From an uncultured delta proteobacterium (GTDB taxonomy: Bacteria; Desulfobacterota; Binatia; UBA9968): 64,000 nucleotides of DNA. Of the stretch, positions 3,599-27,357 are shown piece by piece. The stretch's first letter is position 1. The number at the start of each line of letters is the position of its first letter. Made by a program: the position numbers and the translations under genes. The stretch spans positions 32,001 through 96,000 of the forward strand of contig CAVUZH010000024.1 of assembly GCA_963745835.1 (NCBI GenBank), given 5' to 3'. The notes beneath the pieces were generated by a model. It had not been told where the DNA came from. It searched no databases and worked only from the letters and a program-made list of their open reading frames with translations.

Positions 3599-3793
3599 GA
3601 ACGCATCGGTTTGCCAACGGTCGAAATCCATAACGCTATAACTTCTGCTCGACAGCTACACTATGCCAGCTCAGTAGTTGCTTAACTGTGAGTTTAGCGC
3701 GCGTTTGCTTATGAGGAGCGACGTCTCCGTTGATTATTTATACTCGTCTCCGTCTTTGTGAGTTGCTATCGCCCACCGGGACAGAGGCTTCAG

Positions 3794-4176: not shown

Positions 4177-5280
4177 CTAACGACTCAATGCCGATGTAGA
4201 GACGATTTGTGTGACCTTATCTGAAAAGGCTTCAAAGGCATTGAGTTGCTGCAGATTAATCGGTTCAAGTACTTTCGCATTGGGTGCCTGTTCCTTCAAA
4301 AGCTGGCCTAGCTTCGAGTTCTTCGATGTTGTCCGAGAACTAAATTCCATTTCCTCGAAGATTCTCATCCCGTCTGTCACGAACCATGCTAAGAACAATC
4401 GTCCTAAGTTGGGATGGGGTGAGGTTTTGGTCAAGGCGTACCCTAATGCTACTACCGGGACATAGTCGCCGTAAGTCTTCCACTGGACCGGGGCATGTCT
4501 CGTTTTGAGACGCTCCGTTTCATGAATGCTACCCAATCCGATGGCGGCTTCTCCGGCGGCTACAGCATTGATTACAGGAGGGACATTATTCTTAAAGATT
4601 GGCTTGTTTGCGAGCAGCTTCTGCAGTACGTCAAGTGTTTTTTGCTCGCCCCACACCAAGGAGAATAGATCGAACGGTGAAGCAACCCCACCACCTCCGC
4701 TCATAGCAAACCTGCGAGCCCACTTTGGGTCCGCAAGACCATCAAAATTGTTTGGTACCTCCGAAGACTTTACCAAATTCGTGTTGTATACGAGGCTCCG
4801 AGTACCGTCATATGCGGCAATCCACTTACCTCTCATTTCCATCGGAACCCGGTCGACCGCTGGCTCCTTGATGTCTGGGAATTCGGTTCCGAACACGCTC
4901 AACCAATCGAATCCCTCCAATAAACCGGTATGATCCAAATCCAGTGCGGCTCGGACGCTCGCCATGAATACGGAAGGCCCTTTTTTGTTCGCGTTGACCT
5001 CCGATATGATGCGCGCGACAGCGGGTGTTGGAAAAAGCGACAACCAATCGTATCTAAATTCCAACTGAAACCTTTTTTTGAACGCGTCGAAGAGTGCCTG
5101 CCGGGTTTTCTCCTCACGGGGGTTGGAAGCGTACACTAGAAACACATCACCTCTGGCGGCTTCCTTCCTAGCTGCTTGCAATAGGTCTTGAAACTTTCCA
5201 GTCTGCGCGTTGGCGACACCAAGAAATTGCCACCAACAAATCAACGTGGCGATCATAGTCATTCGCAAGACCTTCATCAT
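4177..5280 (-). CDS. ABC substrate-binding protein (Fe3+/thiamine/polyamine-type family), paralog 3
   Basis: Signal peptide; LVYNTNLV, DGLADPKW and AVAAGEAAIG motifs; strong similarity to the genes at 8638 and 11434. Confidence 0.85.
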   Translation of the reverse strand: MMKVLRMTMIATLICWWQFLGVANAQTGKFQDLLQAARKEAARGDVFLVYASNPREEKTRQALFDAFKKRFQLEFRYDWLSLFPTPAVARIISEVNANKKGPSVFMASVRAALDLDHTGLLEGFDWLSVFGTEFPDIKEPAVDRVPMEMRGKWIAAYDGTRSLVYNTNLVKSSEVPNNFDGLADPKWARRFAMSGGGGVASPFDLFSLVWGEQKTLDVLQKLLANKPIFKNNVPPVINAVAAGEAAIGLGSIHETERLKTRHAPVQWKTYGDYVPVVALGYALTKTSPHPNLGRLFLAWFVTDGMRIFEEMEFSSRTTSKNSKLGQLLKEQAPNAKVLEPINLQQLNAFEAFSDKVTQIVSTSALSR

Positions 5281-8637: not shown

Positions 8638-9750
8638 TTATTGACCCGTAACGCTTCCGGCGATCATTTTGTCAAGTTTATCCCCAAATGCTTCAAATGC
8701 GTCGAACTCCTTCTGACTCTTGGGTTCAAGGACTTTCGCGTTCGGTGCTCGTTCCTGGATCAGCTTATTCAAAAACGACCCTTTGCGGGTCACCCGAGTA
8801 CTGAACTCCATCTTCTCGTAAATCGACATGCCGTCCGTGGCCAACCAAGCGATGAAAAGGTGTGACAGATTTGGATGGCGCGACTTCTTACTCGTGGAAT
8901 AGCCTTGACTTAGCACAGGGATATAATTCCCGTACGTTTTCCAATCTATCGGAGCACCCTTCATTATCTTAAGGCGCTCGGCCTCATGAATGCTCCCGAA
9001 ACCAACCGGTGCTTCGCCGGCGGAAATAGCGTTTACCACTGCCGGCGTTCCTTTCTTAAATATGGGCTTGTTGGCGATAAGCTTCTTCACGAGATTGATC
9101 ACGCGCTCCTCTCCCCAAGCCAACATAAAAAGATCGAATGGCGATGCGCCGCTTGAGTTCATAGCAAATCGCCGTGACCATTTCGGATCCGCCAGATCCT
9201 CCAGCTGGTTGGGGACATCACCTACCTTTAACTGATCGCTATTGAAATTGAAGCTCCTCGTAGCATCGTAAACAACGACCCACTTGCCCTTTAATTCTGT
9301 GGGAACGCGATCCTCGGTCGGCTCTTTAATATCTGGAAACTCTGCACCGAAAGTTCCGGTCCAATCAAAAACTTCAAGTAACCCAGCCTTGTCTGCTTCG
9401 ACGAGCGTGTTGGCACTACTCATTACTATGTCCGGGCCGCTTCGTCCTGCTCGTGCCTCTGACACTAAGCGAGGAACGGCAACGCTCGGGTGCAGCGTTA
9501 ACCACTCGAATTTGAAATTAGGCAACGAATATCTCTTTTTGAAGGCATCAAAAAAGGCTTGCCGTGTCTTTTCCTCGCGAGGATTGGACGCATAGACTAG
9601 AAACGTAGTCCCCTGGCCCGCTTCCTTCTTAGCCGCCGCAACCAACTCCTGAAACTTTACGGTCGCCGCACCCGCCGGGAGGGTGGACAATTGGATCCCG
9701 CTACAGAGCAACGCTGCGTGCAACCATATGAACATCGGTTTTGTTCTCAT
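8638..9750 (-). CDS. ABC substrate-binding protein, paralog 2
   Basis: Signal peptide; shares YASNPREEKTRQA and GSIHEAERLK...WKTYG with its paralogs. Confidence 0.85.
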   Translation of the reverse strand: MRTKPMFIWLHAALLCSGIQLSTLPAGAATVKFQELVAAAKKEAGQGTTFLVYASNPREEKTRQAFFDAFKKRYSLPNFKFEWLTLHPSVAVPRLVSEARAGRSGPDIVMSSANTLVEADKAGLLEVFDWTGTFGAEFPDIKEPTEDRVPTELKGKWVVVYDATRSFNFNSDQLKVGDVPNQLEDLADPKWSRRFAMNSSGASPFDLFMLAWGEERVINLVKKLIANKPIFKKGTPAVVNAISAGEAPVGFGSIHEAERLKIMKGAPIDWKTYGNYIPVLSQGYSTSKKSRHPNLSHLFIAWLATDGMSIYEKMEFSTRVTRKGSFLNKLIQERAPNAKVLEPKSQKEFDAFEAFGDKLDKMIAGSVTGQ

Positions 9751-11433: not shown

Positions 11434-12567
11434 CTACCCACCGCTAAGTCCAGCGGCAATGATTTTGCTGGCCGTTTCGCCAAATTGGTCATGGATCTCA
11501 AACTCCTTTCGACTGGCAGGAGCCAACACTTTTGCGTTAGGAGCACGCTCCTTGATCAACTTATTGAGCGGCGACAATTCATGCGATACTCGGAAGCTGA
11601 AATCCAACTTCTCGGCGATTGCTATACCATCCATTGCAAACCAAGCGATAAACAGCCTGGCAAGATTCTTATGTTGCGACTTTCTTGTTAGTAAGAGACC
11701 TTGCGGCAAGACGGGAATATAGTCTCCTTGCGCTTCTAACCCATAGGTTTTCCAATCAACTGGAGCTCCCTTTGCCTTTAGTCGCTCAGCTTCATGAATG
11801 CTGCCAAAACCGACCGGCGCTTCGCCTGCCGCGACTGCGTTGTTTACCGCGGGGGTGCCTTTCTTGTAGATAGGTTTATTCGACATTACCTTTTTCATTG
11901 CATTTATTGTGCGGTCCTCTCCCCATCTGAGAACAAACAAATCCCATGGCGAACTTCCAGTATTGCTCATGATAAATTTTCTCGACCATTGTGGTTGGCT
12001 GAGATTCTCAACGAGATCCGGGACCTGACCAGCTTTGAGTTGTTGTGTATTAAAAATGAAGCTGCGAGTGGCATCAAACAAAGCAACCCACTTTCCCTTC
12101 AGCTCCACAGGCACTCTTTCAACAGCTGCTTCTTTGATCGTCGGAAACTCCTCGCTAAAGGCTGCTACCCAATCATAAGCTTCGAGGAGACCTGCTTCGT
12201 CTATATCCGACAGAGAATTATGACTTCCGAAAACTACGTCGGGACCGCTTCTGCCGGCTCGAGTTTCTGCTACGATGCGAGCAACTGTGTCACGAGGATG
12301 AAGCGGAAGCCGTTCAAACTTTAGCTCACCTAAACCGTATTTTTTCGCGAAGGTATCTACTAGAATTTGCCAGGTCTTATCGTCCCTAGGATTCGAGGCC
12401 CAAATCACAAAACTTCCCGTAGTTTCCTTCTTCGCTTCCACCAAGACGTGCTTAAATCTGAGGGGTTGTGCATCAGTTCTTGTTGCATCAACATTCGACA
12501 GAAAGGACCAGATTAAGGTCAAAACGACAATTTTGATGGGCCCATTTTGGAACATTTTCTCCCCCAT
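11434..12567 (-). CDS. ABC substrate-binding protein, paralog 1
   Basis: Signal-like N-terminus; WASNPRDDKT, EARAG-like ETRAGRSGPDVV and GSIHEAERLK motifs. Confidence 0.85.
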   Translation of the reverse strand: MGEKMFQNGPIKIVVLTLIWSFLSNVDATRTDAQPLRFKHVLVEAKKETTGSFVIWASNPRDDKTWQILVDTFAKKYGLGELKFERLPLHPRDTVARIVAETRAGRSGPDVVFGSHNSLSDIDEAGLLEAYDWVAAFSEEFPTIKEAAVERVPVELKGKWVALFDATRSFIFNTQQLKAGQVPDLVENLSQPQWSRKFIMSNTGSSPWDLFVLRWGEDRTINAMKKVMSNKPIYKKGTPAVNNAVAAGEAPVGFGSIHEAERLKAKGAPVDWKTYGLEAQGDYIPVLPQGLLLTRKSQHKNLARLFIAWFAMDGIAIAEKLDFSFRVSHELSPLNKLIKERAPNAKVLAPASRKEFEIHDQFGETASKIIAAGLSGG

Positions 12568-21877: not shown

Positions 21878-22681
21878 TTAGTTATAAACAATACGTTTAA
21901 TTTTCTCTGTGCGGTTCTGTCTTGGGCTCCTACTAGGATAGTCGAGCTCATCAGACAATTTCTCAGCCACACCTTTTACAAGCGTACCCAAACGGTCAAC
22001 CCCGAATCGCTTCATACGTTCTATAGGTCCAATAATTGCCAAGCTGCCGACTACTGCGCCACAACTGAATACAGGTGCGGCAATCCCTGCCGTATCAAGA
22101 GACTTTTCCTTCAGGCTAACGGCGTAGCCCCTTCTCCTAATTCCGTCTATCTTTTTCCAAATTTGTTTTTGCGTCGTAGGCGTGAAGGATGTGTATGGCA
22201 AGAATTTTTTGTTGCCTAGGATGGATTTGATCTCTTCATCGGGAAGCATAGCCAGTATGGCCGGTCCTGAAGATCCGACGTAGAGTGGTCGGGGAATACC
22301 AGTTTGGGAAACGGTCCTGGTTTCTTGTGGGCTTTCCCATCGCTCTAAAGTGACGCACATATCAGCTCGGAATCTCTCCGTGTAGCCGACGGTTTCCTGA
22401 CTGGAATCAACCAACGCTTGAATAAAAGGTAGGACCTTCTCTCTAATTACACCATTTCTACGAAACGCCTCCGCAAAAAAGAGAAAAGCGGGACCCAGAG
22501 TGATCAATCCATTTTCTGAAAGCTTATGAACAAGGCCTTTTGCCTCCAGCGATATCATAAGCCGATAGACTGTCATCTTGTTCAGTCCGGCCGCCGCTGC
22601 GAGCTCTTTTAACGCAAGAGGTCGACCAGCTCTAGCCAGTGTTTCGAGTATTGCTACGCCTCGAAGAATAGATCGGTTCAT
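21878..22681 (-). CDS. IclR-family transcriptional regulator
   Basis: N-terminal HTH (LKELAAAAGLNKMTVYRLM), PLYVGSSG and IRRRGYA...GIAAPVF motifs. Confidence 0.95.
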   Translation of the reverse strand: MNRSILRGVAILETLARAGRPLALKELAAAAGLNKMTVYRLMISLEAKGLVHKLSENGLITLGPAFLFFAEAFRRNGVIREKVLPFIQALVDSSQETVGYTERFRADMCVTLERWESPQETRTVSQTGIPRPLYVGSSGPAILAMLPDEEIKSILGNKKFLPYTSFTPTTQKQIWKKIDGIRRRGYAVSLKEKSLDTAGIAAPVFSCGAVVGSLAIIGPIERMKRFGVDRLGTLVKGVAEKLSDELDYPSRSPRQNRTEKIKRIVYN

Positions 22682-22749: not shown

Positions 22750-23736
22750 TATGTCTGAGATACAACACCGTCGTCGATGCCTTGAATGTCAGGAAGTTTT
22801 CAAGGTGCTAAAAGCGCCGCCGGTCGATATGCTGAAATCGGCGTTGGGAGAAATCCGATCCGGAGAAGCAGACACGACTCGATTGGAGCCAAGCGGAGCG
22901 CGAGCGGCTGACGCACGAAGAACAGAAAGCGCGAGCGCATGCCGACCGCTCTTATGGTAGCCTTGAGTGTGTTCACCGCGATGCGCTCGCGAAACTTGAA
23001 AGCGTCTTAGAAGAGAAGGAGAGGATCGAGCAGAAATTCGCCATGGAACCACTGGTGACGGCGACGATGTTCTCTAATCTCTAAGACGGTCAGTTTTGGC
23101 GCATGAAGCTCGCGAATCAATTCGTCGCGGCCGGCAGGTCGCAAGATTGATATAGCTGTCGGGTCGCCCGTTTTGGTAACGGCAACCAAAAGATCTTTGC
23201 GTCGATCCTTTGTTTGGAAGCCGTTACCACAGATGTGATCGATAATGACGAAGATCGCAAGATCTGCAAAATTGACGTTCTTAGATTTGTCATGCGCCGG
23301 AAGAACCTCCACTGATGAGATTGCGAAAATCACCAGGGACGGGCTTTACAACGTAATGCGGAAATTCCGTCTTAAAGCGCACCGGTCTCGATCTTTGCGA
23401 CAAAAAGCCGATGAGCTTAACCGGGCGGGTCCGATCTCTCGAGTGGATTGCGCAGCACTTTAATCAACAGCATTTAAGAAGTGCGTGGGGAAAGATGTGG
23501 ACACCTGTGATGATGAAGGAGTTACTACGTGGCCCCCGGGACAAAGCTACGTTGCGGAAAAAATTCATCGGAATGCGATCCTAGAGGCCCTCGCACGCGG
23601 TCTCGACTTTCGAGAAATCGCCAATGACTTTAACGAAAAAAAGCTCCGCCGACGGAGGGGTAGCCACTCTTGGACGGCGCGGAGTGACAGGCAGCGGTGG
23701 AACGATCTTAAGCGACTGCAATGTAGCCGGGAATAG
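22750..23736 (+). pseudogene. Decayed recombinase-family gene (coiled-coil plus recombinase DNA-binding-like segments)
   Basis: Broken frames include ERERLTHEEQKARAHADRSY...ALAKLESVLEEKERIEQKF and RGLDFREIANDFNEKKLRRRRGSHSWTA, both typical of LSR C-terminal regions. No catalytic domain is seen. Confidence 0.45.
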
Positions 23737-23789
23737 AAAGGCGAAATTCGACCGGACCTGTCGGAATCGGTGGTCTTAAAGAAATCAGC

Positions 23790-25406
23790 ATGATCACGAA
23801 CACAGCAACAAAACAGCAGCAACCGCCGTCATTTACGCCCGGGTATCATCGGAAGAGCAGGTGCAGGGATACTCGATCCAGGCACAGCTCCGAGCATGCC
23901 GCGATTGGGCGGAAAAGCACGGCTACAAAGTTGGCAAAGAATATCTCGACGAGGGCTACTCCGCATCGCGGAATCCTCGAGAAACGTGAATCGTTCAAGG
24001 AGATACTGGGAGATGCGGCTTCGAAGAGCCAACCGTTCAGCACTATCATCGTGCACAACCTCGATCGCTTTTCCCGCGACAGCCTGGAATCCTTTACGTC
24101 CAAGGCAATACTCAAGCGCCACAAGGTCCGCCTGATTTCCGTTCAGGAACCCGTCGTCGGCTCCGACGCGCCGGAAGACGCCTTCATGGAGCACATCCTT
24201 GTCGGAATGGCCGAGTTTTACAGCAAAAACTTAGCCCGAGAAATAAGGAAGGGGCTTACCGAAAGGATTCGACAAGGGTTTCCCGTTTTCAGGCCACCCT
24301 ACGGGTATCGCCGCGAGGTAATCGAAAAACGGGAAGGTCAGATAAGGATCCGCACGATCAGCCGACCGGCAGTTGATGATGCTGCCGCAGGCGTGGTCCG
24401 AAAGATTTTCGAATTATGTGACCGCGGCGTTGGGTACAAAGAAACGCGAACATCCTCAACAACGAGGGCTTTCGAACCACGCTGGGAAAGCGATTTGCGA
24501 GCAACCACGTTTATTGGATTGTACACAATAAAGCTTACGTCGGTGTGCTCGAATATAATTTCCGTGAACGGTACGGCGCGGTCGAGCCGATGACCATCCC
24601 GGGATTTTATCCAGCGATCATCGACCCGCAGATGTTCGAGCAGGTCCAGGCCAAACTTCGCCTCAGTTCCGCGAATTGGCGAAATTCCTACGCGAACCGC
24701 ACCTCATACTTATTGAGCGACCTGGTCATCTGCGATGGATGCGGCCGTCGGTATCTTGGAACGGCCGCAAAAGGCGGCAAATTTCATTACTATGGCTGTG
24801 GCTCTTATCTGAAGGGCGGCAAGCAAACATGCGACTCATCAACAAGACGAAACTCGAGAGCGCAGTCGTAACAAAGGTCATGGAGGAAATACTGACGCCG
24901 ACCAATATCAGGAACTATATCCGACGTGTGATGGAAAGCGCTCGGAATTCAGAAGAGACAAGCCCTTGCCGGAGTACGAGGCGGTCCGAACGGCGCTGAC
25001 TGATTTGCAGAGCCGGCTTAAGCGTTGGGAAAATGCGCTTGAGTCCGGCGAACTTTCGATCGAGCACGCGGCTCAGCGGATAAAGGAACTCCATGAACAG
25101 CGCCAGGAATTGCTCAGAAAGAAAGCGGCTCTCGATGGTGATCGACGCAACCATGAAAAACAGTGTCGGCGATTCCGACGGCGCGAATGGACGCTTACAT
25201 CGCCGAGATGCGGCGTCGGTTAGCGGCCCAAGCAAATCGGGGCAAAAAGGGAATTTCTCCAGGAGGTTCTTAAGGAGGTGAGAGTGCGCGGCGGCAACGT
25301 CACCCTCACCTACAAGCTACCTCTGGCAGCATCTGAGTGTAGGTTCTTTACACCATTAAGATTGGTGGGCCCACCTGGACTCGAACCAGGGACCAACCGG
25401 TTATGA
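23790..25406 (+). pseudogene. Large serine recombinase (integrase) with about 6-7 frameshifts; may be intact if these are assembly errors
   Basis: AVIYARVSSEEQ catalytic motif at 23825, in a frame the ORF track misses. Then LDRFSR, MAEFYSKNL, PPYGY, YPAII, a CDGC...YYGC...C zinc ribbon and a coiled coil. The last frame ends at TGA 25404-25406 inside the tRNA. Confidence 0.9.
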
Positions 25407-25439
25407 GCCGGTGGCTCTAACCAACTGAGCTATGGGCCC
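25363..25439 (-). tRNA. tRNA-Ile2 (CAT anticodon, lysidine type)
   Basis: GGGCCCATAGCTCAGTTGGTTAGAGC...ACCGG-CT-CAT-AA-CCGGT...GGTTCGAGTCC...GGGCCCACCA, 77 nt. The GGGCCC acceptor stem and the position after rpoD favour Ile2 over Met. Confidence 0.92.
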
Positions 25440-25479: not shown

Positions 25480-27357
25480 TTAAGTCTCCATGAAGCTCTT
25501 CAGCCTTTTGCTGCGACTGGGATGTCTGAGCTTCCGGAGCGCCTTGGCTTCAATTTGCCGAATGCGCTCGCGTGTAACGGTAAACTTTTGACCGACTTCT
25601 TCAAGGGTGTGATCGGATTTCTCACCGATTCCGAACCGCATGCGCAGAACTTGCTCTTCACGTGGGGTTAAAGTGGCGAGTACCTTCTTTGTTTGTTCTT
25701 GCAGATTGATATTCACCACCGCATCGGAAGGAGTGATAATCCTTTTGTCCTCGATAAAGTCCCCAAGATGACTGTCTTCTTCCTCACCTACCGGAGTCTC
25801 CAGGGATATGGGCTCCTTGGCGATTTTAAGTACCTTCCTTACCTTATCTAAGGGAATTTCCATTTTCGTGGCAATTTCCTCGGGCGTTGGCTCGCGGCCA
25901 ATCTCTTGCACTAGATACCGAGAGGTCCGGATAAGCTTATTGATGGTCTCAATCATGTGAACCGGTATGCGGATTGTCCGAGCCTGATCGGCGATCGCTC
26001 TAGTGATTGCTTGACGGATCCACCAGGTGGCATAGGTGGAAAACTTGTATCCTCGCTGATATTCAAACTTATCGACGGCTTTCATTAAGCCGATATTTCC
26101 CTCTTGGATAAGATCGAGAAACTGCAATCCACGGTTGGTGTACTTCTTGGCAATACTCACAACCAATCGCAGATTCGCTTCGATCAGTTCTTTCTTCGCC
26201 AGATTAGCTTTGGTCTCGCCATCAACAATCGACCAAACGCGACGCTTGATTTCTTCCGCCGGGATGTCAAGGTCTTTTTCGATATGCCGTATATCGCGCC
26301 GCGCGCTCCTGATCTCGTCTGACATATGCAGAACCGCGTCGTGCCCCATTCGCAGCGAACTGGTGAGGCGTTGCCAATCCTTCTTACGTCCGTTCAGGTT
26401 TGCAACAAGCTTCAGGAGTTCGGAAGCGCTCTTCCCGGTCCTTTGCTCGAATTCCTTCACCCGGCGCTCAAGGGTTTGCATTCGATCCATGGCTCTCTTG
26501 AGACCATCAACAATCGCTTCGGTTTGCTTTCGATTCAGCTGAAGATTTTTCAGGCCGCCGACAATTCGGTCGTGATACTTTTCTAAAGTTTGTTGCAGCG
26601 CCTGACGACGTTGCGCCGAAAGCCGCTTGCCCTCGAGTTCGTCTTTAATCTTGTCTCGCTCATTAGCGGCCCTGCGGATTTTAGCGATTTGATCGAGCAA
26701 GCGCCGTTCGTGCACCTCTTCATCTTCGAGGTATTCGGCATCCTCATCACCATCTTTAATTATTTCACGCACTCGGATCTCATGTTGCGCCAATTTTTCA
26801 CCGAGTTCCAAAACGTAACGCAGTGCGAGCGGGCTGGATAATACTTCCTCAATGACTTTCTTTTCGCCTACCTCAATTTTCTTTGCGATCTCTACTTCGC
26901 CTTCACGGCTCAGCAGTGAAACAGTTCCCATCTCCCTTAAGTACATACGCACTGGATCGCCGGTCTTGCCAATCGCATCCCCATCAGTTTCGCCTTCGAT
27001 TTCCTTCTCATCCTCTTCGTCGTCGGCAAGGTCCTCACCGGCTCCTCCAAGAGTGACTCGTTGATTGGAATCAACAACCTCGATATCCATCTCGCCAAAA
27101 ATGGACATCACGTCATCGATCTGATCCGGAGAGACAACTTCCGCAGGAAGCATATCGTTCACATCATCATACGTCAGGTAACCCTTCTCTTTGCCGAGAT
27201 CAATGAGCTTCTTCACCTCCTTCATGTTCTTTTTCTCCGCCGGTTGCCCGGCGGCATGACGCGAGGAAGCTTTATCGTTGGCTATCGAGCGGTTATCTTC
27301 GGCGACGCGAGCTTTCGGCGTTCTAGCTGGCGTTCTTTTCGTACGATTTCTTGCCAT
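25480..27357 (-). CDS. rpoD: RNA polymerase primary sigma factor
   Basis: [41 protein letters not shown] and [16 protein letters not shown] motifs; GGAGAGG SD. Confidence 0.98.

Follow-up and report, generated by a model that had tools for sequence, protein, structure and literature searches.

We describe here a family of mobile elements in which the gene for the integrase appears to contain the attachment site of the element, so that its last codons are exchanged when the element enters a tRNA or transfer-messenger RNA (tmRNA) gene. The case comes from a window of 64,000 nucleotides (nt) of an uncultured delta proteobacterium (Desulfobacterota, Binatia, UBA9968; contig CAVUZH010000024.1, positions 32,001 to 96,000), where the remains of a gene for a large serine recombinase (LSR), termed LSR-B, run into the antisense strand of a tRNA gene. 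We put at about 0.8 the probability that the LSR-B gene spans attP, that its C-terminal codons are swapped when the element inserts at a tRNA or tmRNA 3′ end, and that positions 22790-25406 are the eroded right end of a genomic island moved by a recombinase pair, LSR-A then LSR-B.

The tRNA gene and the reading frame that enters it

The features that make up the overlap in the window are these:

25363-25439, minus strand: tRNA, anticodon CAT, 77 nt, called by ARAGORN; intact; target (B′ side) of the element
25224-25406, plus strand: last open frame of LSR-B, ending ..IGAKREFLQEVLKEVRVRGGNVTLTYKLPLAASECRFFTPLRLV followed by GPPGLEPGTNRL and the stop; the residues past LV are tRNA antisense
25404-25406, plus strand: TGA ending the LSR-B frame; complement of U33-C34-A35

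The open reading frame (ORF) at 25278-25406 on the plus strand translates as MRVRGGNVTLTYKLPLAASECRFFTPLRLVGPPGLEPGTNRL and a stop, its ending being ..VTLTYKLPLAASECRFFTPLRLVGPPGLEPGTNRL; going upstream, the first stop in the same frame is a TAG at 25221-25223. It shares 44 nt with the tRNA gene (25363-25406), that is, 14.7 codons. Counting from the tRNA's 3′ terminus (A76 = 25363), T25404, G25405 and A25406 of the plus strand are the complement of A35, C34 and U33. The initial annotation of this DNA, which had the final recombinase frame end in tRNA antisense with its TGA formed by the anticodon loop, was thus exact with respect to both the ARAGORN call and the ORF coordinates. It had also named the tRNA as tRNA-Ile2, and this is probably what it is: the identification is supported, short of proof. 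The genome has three ordinary CAT tRNAs, together with an 89-nt ARAGORN call on contig C16. The ordinary one on C8 displays a C1/A72 mismatch and is initiator-like, and that on C3 is of a different elongator type. Between the window tRNA and the tRNA-Ile(GAT) of the same genome, 62 of 77 positions agree, the highest score of all pairs compared, and the best Escherichia coli matches of the window tRNA are annotated as tRNA-Ile; the one that was inspected has CAT. As for the C16 call ('tRNA-Met', G000:C16:138109-138197), with an anticodon at position 29 and an un-tRNA-like sequence, it is probably false.

Judged from its relatives, the overlap in the window is more than chance: of 54 distinct gene ends, 32 show this layout with this spacing. 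In a protein search, about 90 clusters with at least 49% identity form a clade; identity then drops sharply to 34% or less, and the tails in this clade mostly resemble tRNA antisense. DNA was sampled at 24 genome loci and 80 metagenome loci, the gene end being located by pattern match; 79 matches yielded 54 distinct sequences, the window's genome (G000) and its congener G004 counting as one because their last 108 nt are identical. These ends are distributed as follows:

32 ends: stop inside an opposite-strand tRNA or tmRNA called by ARAGORN
14 ends: 14-47 nt of the 3′ end of a tRNA or tmRNA, then unrelated DNA
3 ends: cut by the end of the contig
3 ends: odd (L110; L113 twice)
1 end: tRNA 23 nt away, past a 13-nt duplication (L066)
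1 end: P-O-P′ junction (L125)

The 32 targets comprise tRNAs with the CAT anticodon (4), Ala-CGC (13), Ala-GGC (3), Val-CAC (7) and Lys-CTT (1), as well as tmRNA (4). Between the motif TTCTTTACA and the tRNA 3′ end the gap is 10 nt in 31 of them and 9 nt in the last one. Examination of homologous tails, which the initial annotation had proposed as a check, does not refute its claim: the stop falls inside a tRNA or tmRNA in those 32 ends, and the homologues do not end upstream of the tRNA. In the integrated state the tails range from about 10 to about 75 residues, and both length and sequence vary with the target. In L066, around 3619-3660, LSR-B and tRNA-Ala(GGC) are separated by 13 nt of tRNA 3′ end and core that have been duplicated in tandem (TTGGTGGAGCCGT then TTGGTGGAGCCGA); the resulting shift of frame makes the ORF read through the whole tRNA.

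Within the order, 11 of 123 genomes have LSR-B relatives. In the genus of the window, G004 has the same recombinase, in a frame open for at least 302 residues and with the identical tail inside the tRNA; G005 and G002 keep recombinase remnants, and what stands at this tRNA in G001 and G006 is a broken tyrosine integrase. An intact gene is present in G069, where a 558-residue LSR-B, ending 65 nt inside tRNA-Ala(CGC), possesses all three of the Resolvase, Recombinase and zinc ribbon domains. It is preceded by a 743-residue LSR-A with Resolvase and Recombinase domains. An LSR-A fragment is also found directly upstream in 25 of the 36 metagenome loci that have room for it, and four more have a match at 29% identity. 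Phage and plasmid collections contained no close relative (the nearest at 35% identity or less) and no intact gene of the excised form. The tRNA habit may be wider than the LSR-B clade. Among 20 loci with distant LSRs from other phyla (28-35% identity; L043-L060), 13 have the recombinase gene against or across a tRNA gene, namely tRNA-Ala(CGC) in Selenomonadaceae/Propionispira, tRNA-Leu in Syntrophomonas and tRNA-Ser in Saccharibacteria/Microbacteriaceae, and several of them read into or through the tRNA.

A tRNA-like stretch of 73 nt is located behind the intact 571-residue LSR-B of L018 (G092:C17), at positions 1367-1439. It follows tRNA-Ala(CGC) from the 3′ end as far as the anticodon loop, then diverges and ends near-complementary to the acceptor strand. 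Its Rfam tmRNA match is below threshold (25.4 bits versus a gathering score of 47), and the 20 kb downstream in G092:C17 contain no integrase and no tRNA.

Attachment sites and the detached C-terminal tail

Two short motifs of the window delimit what would be the right attachment site:

25344-25356, plus strand: P-arm motif TTCTTTACACCAT, codons Phe-Phe-Thr-Pro..; putative outer recombinase-binding motif of attP/attR
25360-25368, strand-neutral: common core GATTGGTGG, shared by attB, attL and attR; three trailer nt, CCA, A73, C72

The codons for Phe-Phe-Thr under TTCTTTACA, counted over 51 ends (L110 and L113 left out), are TTC in 51/51, TTT in 47/51 (the others not being Phe) and ACA in 51/51. 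Synonymous variants are absent there, while two codons serve for the invariant Tyr nearby and four for the invariant Pro. This lack of synonymous variation reflects a constraint at the level of DNA. The other half of the site came from L125, where TTCTTTACACTGT is followed by 22 nt and by the mirrored ACAGTGTAAAGAA, forming perfect 13-nt inverted arms (P-O-P′); identity to the tRNA ends after TGGTGGAG. Two more P-O-P′ junctions are present in L100 and L111, and the P′ arm stands as an orphan in L160, L161 and L163. Finally, the P′ arm GAGGCAGYGGGACAGTGTAAAGAA was found inverted, on the same contig as LSR-B, at the following places:

G069:C2, 69.3 kb upstream of LSR-B
G096:C15, 46.2 kb upstream of LSR-B
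G092:C25, 5.5 kb upstream of LSR-B

In the genus of the window the sites can be aligned with one another. Contig G004:C153 starts with a P′ arm, joined to the tyrosine-integrase-remnant flank that abuts the tRNA in G001 and G006. When attB (G001, G006), attL (G004:C153) and attR (the window, G004:C156) are compared, only GATTGGTGG is common (AATTGGTGG in G006). Because the sites share nothing else, the crossover would take place in the three trailer bases, CCA, A73 and C72. The dyad symmetry of the 13+22+13 site of L125 would place the central dinucleotide at the GG of 25367-25368 (tRNA C72, C71); the exact cut site is inferred, as is catalysis of the recombination by LSR-B, with or without LSR-A. 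At most the last 5 nt of the tRNA would then be exchanged, the acceptor, T and anticodon arms that are read by the tail being, to judge from these alignments, host DNA. So short a core forms no long repeat, and this would therefore account for the negative outcome of the searches for a direct repeat of the tRNA 3′ part acting as attL, which was seen neither in the window, nor within 80 kb upstream in G069, nor in G001 and G006. Junctions that keep 25-47 nt of the tRNA (L004, L018, L065 and others) had also been considered as attP; they were dropped in view of the P′-arm sites and of the same-genus alignment. The initial annotation placed the att site within the integrase gene, which would give the integrated form a different tail from the excised one. 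Support for this comes from the same-genus attB/attL/attR set, from the P-O-P′ sites of L125, L100 and L111, and from the candidate attL sites 5.5, 46 and 69 kb upstream. Accretion of elements is visible in G004 and in G092:C25, where a tyrosine-integrase end precedes attL.

Read in the LSR-B frame, nine of ten P′ sites encode EA[AV][GRA]Q[CYR]KEP, four residues, [VF]SF.L and, one residue later, a stop; the P′ copy of G004 is cut by the contig end. Six independent P′ sites, making 15 pairs, lend themselves to a codon-position test. For the nine codons past the arm, the differences per site at positions 1, 2 and 3 are 0.35, 0.21 and 0.68. Amino-acid identity over the same codons is 0.62 in frame versus 0.22 and 0.16 out of frame, where stops also occur, and the position of the stop is conserved in five of the six sites. 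Such a pattern is typical of selected coding sequence, and it suggests that the native C-terminus spans attP and is replaced on integration. The frame continues through the P′ arm and 10-11 codons beyond it to a conserved stop; about 18 codons, a small part of the gene, would be detached.

A mechanism may be assembled from these elements. The island would be moved by tandem large serine recombinases, LSR-A then LSR-B. Its attP would be 48 bp long, with a 13-bp arm TTCTTTACAC.., a 22-bp spacer and an inverted arm ..GTGTAAAGAA, and would lie inside the 3′ end of the LSR-B gene, while a tRNA or tmRNA gene would supply attB at its 3′ extremity, with the crossover around CCA, the discriminator and position 72. 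Because the crossover would be confined to these few bases, the tRNA would be kept whole and no long direct repeat would form. The LSR-B frame, free of stops before the crossover, would after integration enter the tRNA antisense and go on until a chance stop, in the window the TGA of the anticodon loop. The last 17-19 native codons (..EAxGQCKEPxxxVSFxLx and the stop) would remain at attL, at the opposite end of the island. A full-length gene would then exist in the excised form only, because the right arm continues the frame into the conserved tail. Of all this, the sequences themselves show the overlap, the fixed spacing, the set of att sites and a coding-type conservation of the tail that P′ encodes.

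In G069, about 69 kb separate the two sites of the island (L031 10736 to L028 16032). Defence and metabolism genes seem to be mixed in its cargo, which includes an AddAB-like helicase-nuclease pair; an ARPP-1 protein; WYL and other regulators; DUF4007, DUF2779, HNH, HepT and PIN toxins; two insertion-sequence genes; a pyruvate:ferredoxin oxidoreductase; and a TctC/amidohydrolase pair. Nothing in it was recognised as a phage or conjugation gene. A chromosomal site resembling P-O-P′ also occurs in L159 (G092:C13:61890-62090), with a spacer of 23 nt, not 22 nt, and a short recombinase remnant on its left. It could be a tandem-array junction or a scar.

The decayed copy in the window and the competing explanations

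Around the tRNA, the window retains the following remnants and neighbours:

22790-23751, plus strand: remnant of LSR-A, the upstream partner recombinase; found by tblastn of the G069 LSR-A against the window; several frames
23822-25406, plus strand: LSR-B pseudogene, large serine recombinase; found by comparison with intact relatives and by Pfam matches on pieces
23822-23974, 23976-24443, 24446-24832, 24832-24957 and 24954-25403, plus strand: LSR-B pieces, in alternating frames
25157-25225, plus strand: further frame excursion of LSR-B, with a TAG at 25221-25223
21878-22681: intact IclR-type gene, 267 residues; precedes 2.7 kb of broken reading frames
25480-27357, minus strand: rpoD, intact, 625 residues; on the other side of the tRNA from the broken frames

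The window LSR-B has at least six frame breaks in addition to the TAG, and no single continuous reading frame; that it is spread over five or more frames the initial annotation had only intimated. Its ancestry is still legible: the motif ..IYARVSSEEQ.. can be read from 23822 onward, PF00239 (Resolvase) matches two fragments (E-values of 2.9e-6 and 1.5e-13), the catalytic domain being split over two frames, and PF07508 (Recombinase) and PF13408 (Zn_ribbon_recom) score 54.3 bits (genome search) and 36.4 bits. The LSR-A remnant corresponds only to residues ~395-736 of the 743-residue G069 protein, the ~394 N-terminal residues being gone; it includes a small inverted piece at 23070-23230, and the Pfam Recombinase matches on its fragments are weak. 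No P′ arm was found anywhere in the window's genome. By all these marks the copy is a multiply frameshifted pseudogene and the system is dead, with LSR-B frameshifted, LSR-A truncated and attL lost. The directionality or stability switch that the initial annotation had suggested does not operate at this locus, given the state of the gene and the loss of the element's other end; elsewhere in the family such a switch, like an effect of convergent transcription against the tRNA, is a hypothesis. For annotation purposes, the tRNA of the window stays intact host DNA, and the ORF that overlaps it is the tail of a pseudogene.

Could the frame breaks be assembly errors, and the integrase of the window alive? 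The genome is in 25 contigs with 9.3% contamination, and gap letters, 3-4 of them, occur in some of the X7 contigs over 23761-24134 and 24733-25347. Against this, contigs from runs of two other studies are gap-free over 24105-24520 and 24536-25145 and cover the breaks near 24445, 24835 and 24955. Because they span these three breaks, the latter are not peculiar to this assembly. Moreover, the neighbouring rpoD and IclR-type genes are intact, LSR-A lacks about 394 N-terminal residues, and the P′ arm is missing from the whole genome, all of which makes a living gene very improbable. Just as hard to sustain, and if anything harder, is the idea that the recombinase merely sits beside the tRNA, the insertion having been the work of another integrase, for instance the tyrosine type of G001 and G006. 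The remnant of such an enzyme does occur at the same tRNA in these two congeners. Yet the 10-nt spacing is fixed across six different RNA gene targets, and in G004 the LSR element sits between the tyrosine-integrase remnant and the tRNA. A somewhat less remote alternative, though we still deem it quite unlikely, puts the crossover deeper in the tRNA, in the T or anticodon loop as tyrosine integrases do, and takes the junctions keeping 25-47 nt (L004, L076, L118, L065, L093 and others) as the true attP. There are fourteen junctions with a long fragment; they break at the T arm or the anticodon loop, and within a target type their downstream sequences are alike. This fits poorly, however, with attB, attL and attR of the window's genus sharing only GATTGGTGG, with attL sites devoid of tRNA arm sequence, and with the lack of a repeated tRNA 3′ fragment, both in the window and over the 80 kb upstream in G069. 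The conserved motif would also be 38-63 bp off, beyond the usual LSR site of ~50 bp.

A more serious contender accepts the architecture and disputes its meaning. The tail swap would be a neutral by-product of attP abutting the gene, any tail working equally well, and the apparent conservation of the peptide would reflect DNA constraints or the close relatedness of a few sites. We find this quite conceivable, at somewhat less than even odds. The wide variation of the integrated tails, which according to the target have about 10 residues or as many as about 75, agrees with it, as do the restriction of the codon-position test to six independent P′ sites and the existence of one P′ site without the tail and of one without the stop. 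It has to contend, on the other hand, with the excess of third-position differences (0.68 versus 0.35 and 0.21), with an in-frame identity of 0.62 versus 0.22 and 0.16, both measured past the 13-bp arm, and with a stop kept in five of six sites. The most ambitious proposal is that the clade targets tRNA/tmRNA 3′ ends with attP in its own coding sequence and that the tail swap is a self-encoded sensor of the integration state. We consider it rather doubtful. If true, the sensor could fix directionality or silence the integrase once the element is inserted, acting alone or together with an accessory factor.

Several observations weigh against an LSR-B gene that spans attP and swaps its last codons at tRNA or tmRNA 3′ ends. 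The fourteen long-fragment ends we tentatively ascribe to other elements that entered the same tRNA afterwards, by the kind of accretion visible in G004 and G092:C25. One of them, L004, comes from an unpublished genome, G018, where the tRNA's own flank showed no integrase ORF of at least 60 residues, the ORFs being read by eye only. The conserved tail is absent at one P′ site, L157, and the P′ of G069 lacks the usual stop and is 15 codons longer. No intact LSR-B was seen across a P-O-P′ junction, the genes in L125, L100 and L111 all being frameshifted. Nor was a circular-junction read seen in the public runs, which consist of assembled contigs with patchy cover and are uninformative on absence. 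Last, attL and attR were paired by motif, orientation and contig, with an empty-site comparison in the window's genus only; a comparison by synteny for the empty site of the G069 island failed, its congeners being too rearranged.

Known systems, wider meaning and the tRNA-rpoD site

The phage-type large serine integrases include those of phiC31, Bxb1, A118/LI and TP901-1. LSR-B has their domain order (Resolvase, Recombinase, zinc ribbon) and their kind of site, an attP of about 48 bp with inverted arms, a central dinucleotide and a core of a few bases shared with attB. Short sites of this type, with inverted arms and a small common core, do appear to be present here, as the 13+22+13 bp of L125 and the core GATTGGTGG. 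The differences are that LSR-B targets the extreme 3′ end of a tRNA or tmRNA, that its attP is inside its own ORF, that two recombinase genes are in tandem, and that the nearest phage or plasmid matches are at 35% identity or less. The CcrA/CcrB pair of the staphylococcal SCC elements is also a pair of LSR genes inserting at the 3′ end of a housekeeping gene which is spared, but the target is a protein gene, rlmH/orfX, and the att site is not known to lie within a ccr gene.

Other parallels come from tyrosine recombinases. The crossovers of tyrosine integrases are reportedly placed in the anticodon or T loop, as Williams is said to have described in 2002. In the SSV1-type integrases of archaeal fuselloviruses, attP is within the integrase ORF and integration in a tRNA partitions the gene. 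This logic, attP inside the integrase ORF and each of attL and attR keeping a part of the gene, seems to be found here too; the fusellovirus enzymes are, in contrast, tyrosine recombinases whose gene is split into two large parts, whereas here about 18 last codons are detached and replaced. The mycobacteriophages BPs and Brujita, with their integration-dependent immunity, offer an attP in the 3′ end of a gene and an integration into a tRNA that alters the C-terminus and the behaviour of the product. There, however, the gene is that of the repressor and the integrase is a tyrosine recombinase. Broussard and colleagues are said to have demonstrated the effect, loss of a degradation tag, by experiment in 2013, whereas for LSR-B an effect is hypothetical. 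Tyrosine-integrase islands share with the present one tRNA and tmRNA targets that are kept functional and an integrase at the island end facing the tRNA (PMC4383910, PMC12884075), and this very tRNA is entered, in another frame, by the remnant of G006. They differ by the family of the enzyme; LSR-B, with its crossover at CCA and the discriminator, displaces no long tRNA fragment.

Serine integrases are usually described as inserting in protein-coding genes. The initial annotation had remarked that targeting of tRNA is more typical of tyrosine integrases, in agreement with passages of the main tRNA-island database paper (PMC4383910, 2014), where tRNA genes are targeted by tyrosine-family integrases only, the serine family not being known to do so. 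Passages with target statistics in PMC12424338 and PMC12884075 do not link serine integrases to tRNAs, passages of PMC5357655 place streptococcal serine integrases in protein genes, and 'tRNA' does not occur in the search listing of PMC10083194. In the open literature, supplements and subscription journals being outside its scope, we found no description of a serine integrase targeting tRNA with this arrangement. The interest lies in the family more than in the locus of the window. The clade hits at least six different tRNA/tmRNA genes with base-exact geometry and, tRNA 3′ ends being conserved across bacteria, such enzymes could provide genome engineering with landing sites that exist already. 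With its attachment site inside it, the gene also makes a testable model of how an element could sense its integration.

The site itself has its own history. The tRNA-rpoD pair is kept in all 41 related genomes searched, and the site serves both integrase families as a hot spot of insertion. An alternative frame ending in the tRNA, which the initial annotation had pointed out, corresponds to the tyrosine-integrase frame of two congeners (..IGGPTWTRTRDQPVMSRWL and a stop). A fragmented tyrosine integrase abuts the same tRNA in L006 (1781-2179, minus strand) and L007 (1204-1569, plus strand), the rpoD region being 97.5-98% identical to that of the window. Elsewhere in the window, a 65-nt stretch is present three times (4505-4569, 8969-9033 and 11777-11841) at 72-74% identity, inside minus-strand ORFs of 367, 370 and 377 residues, which are probably paralogous genes.

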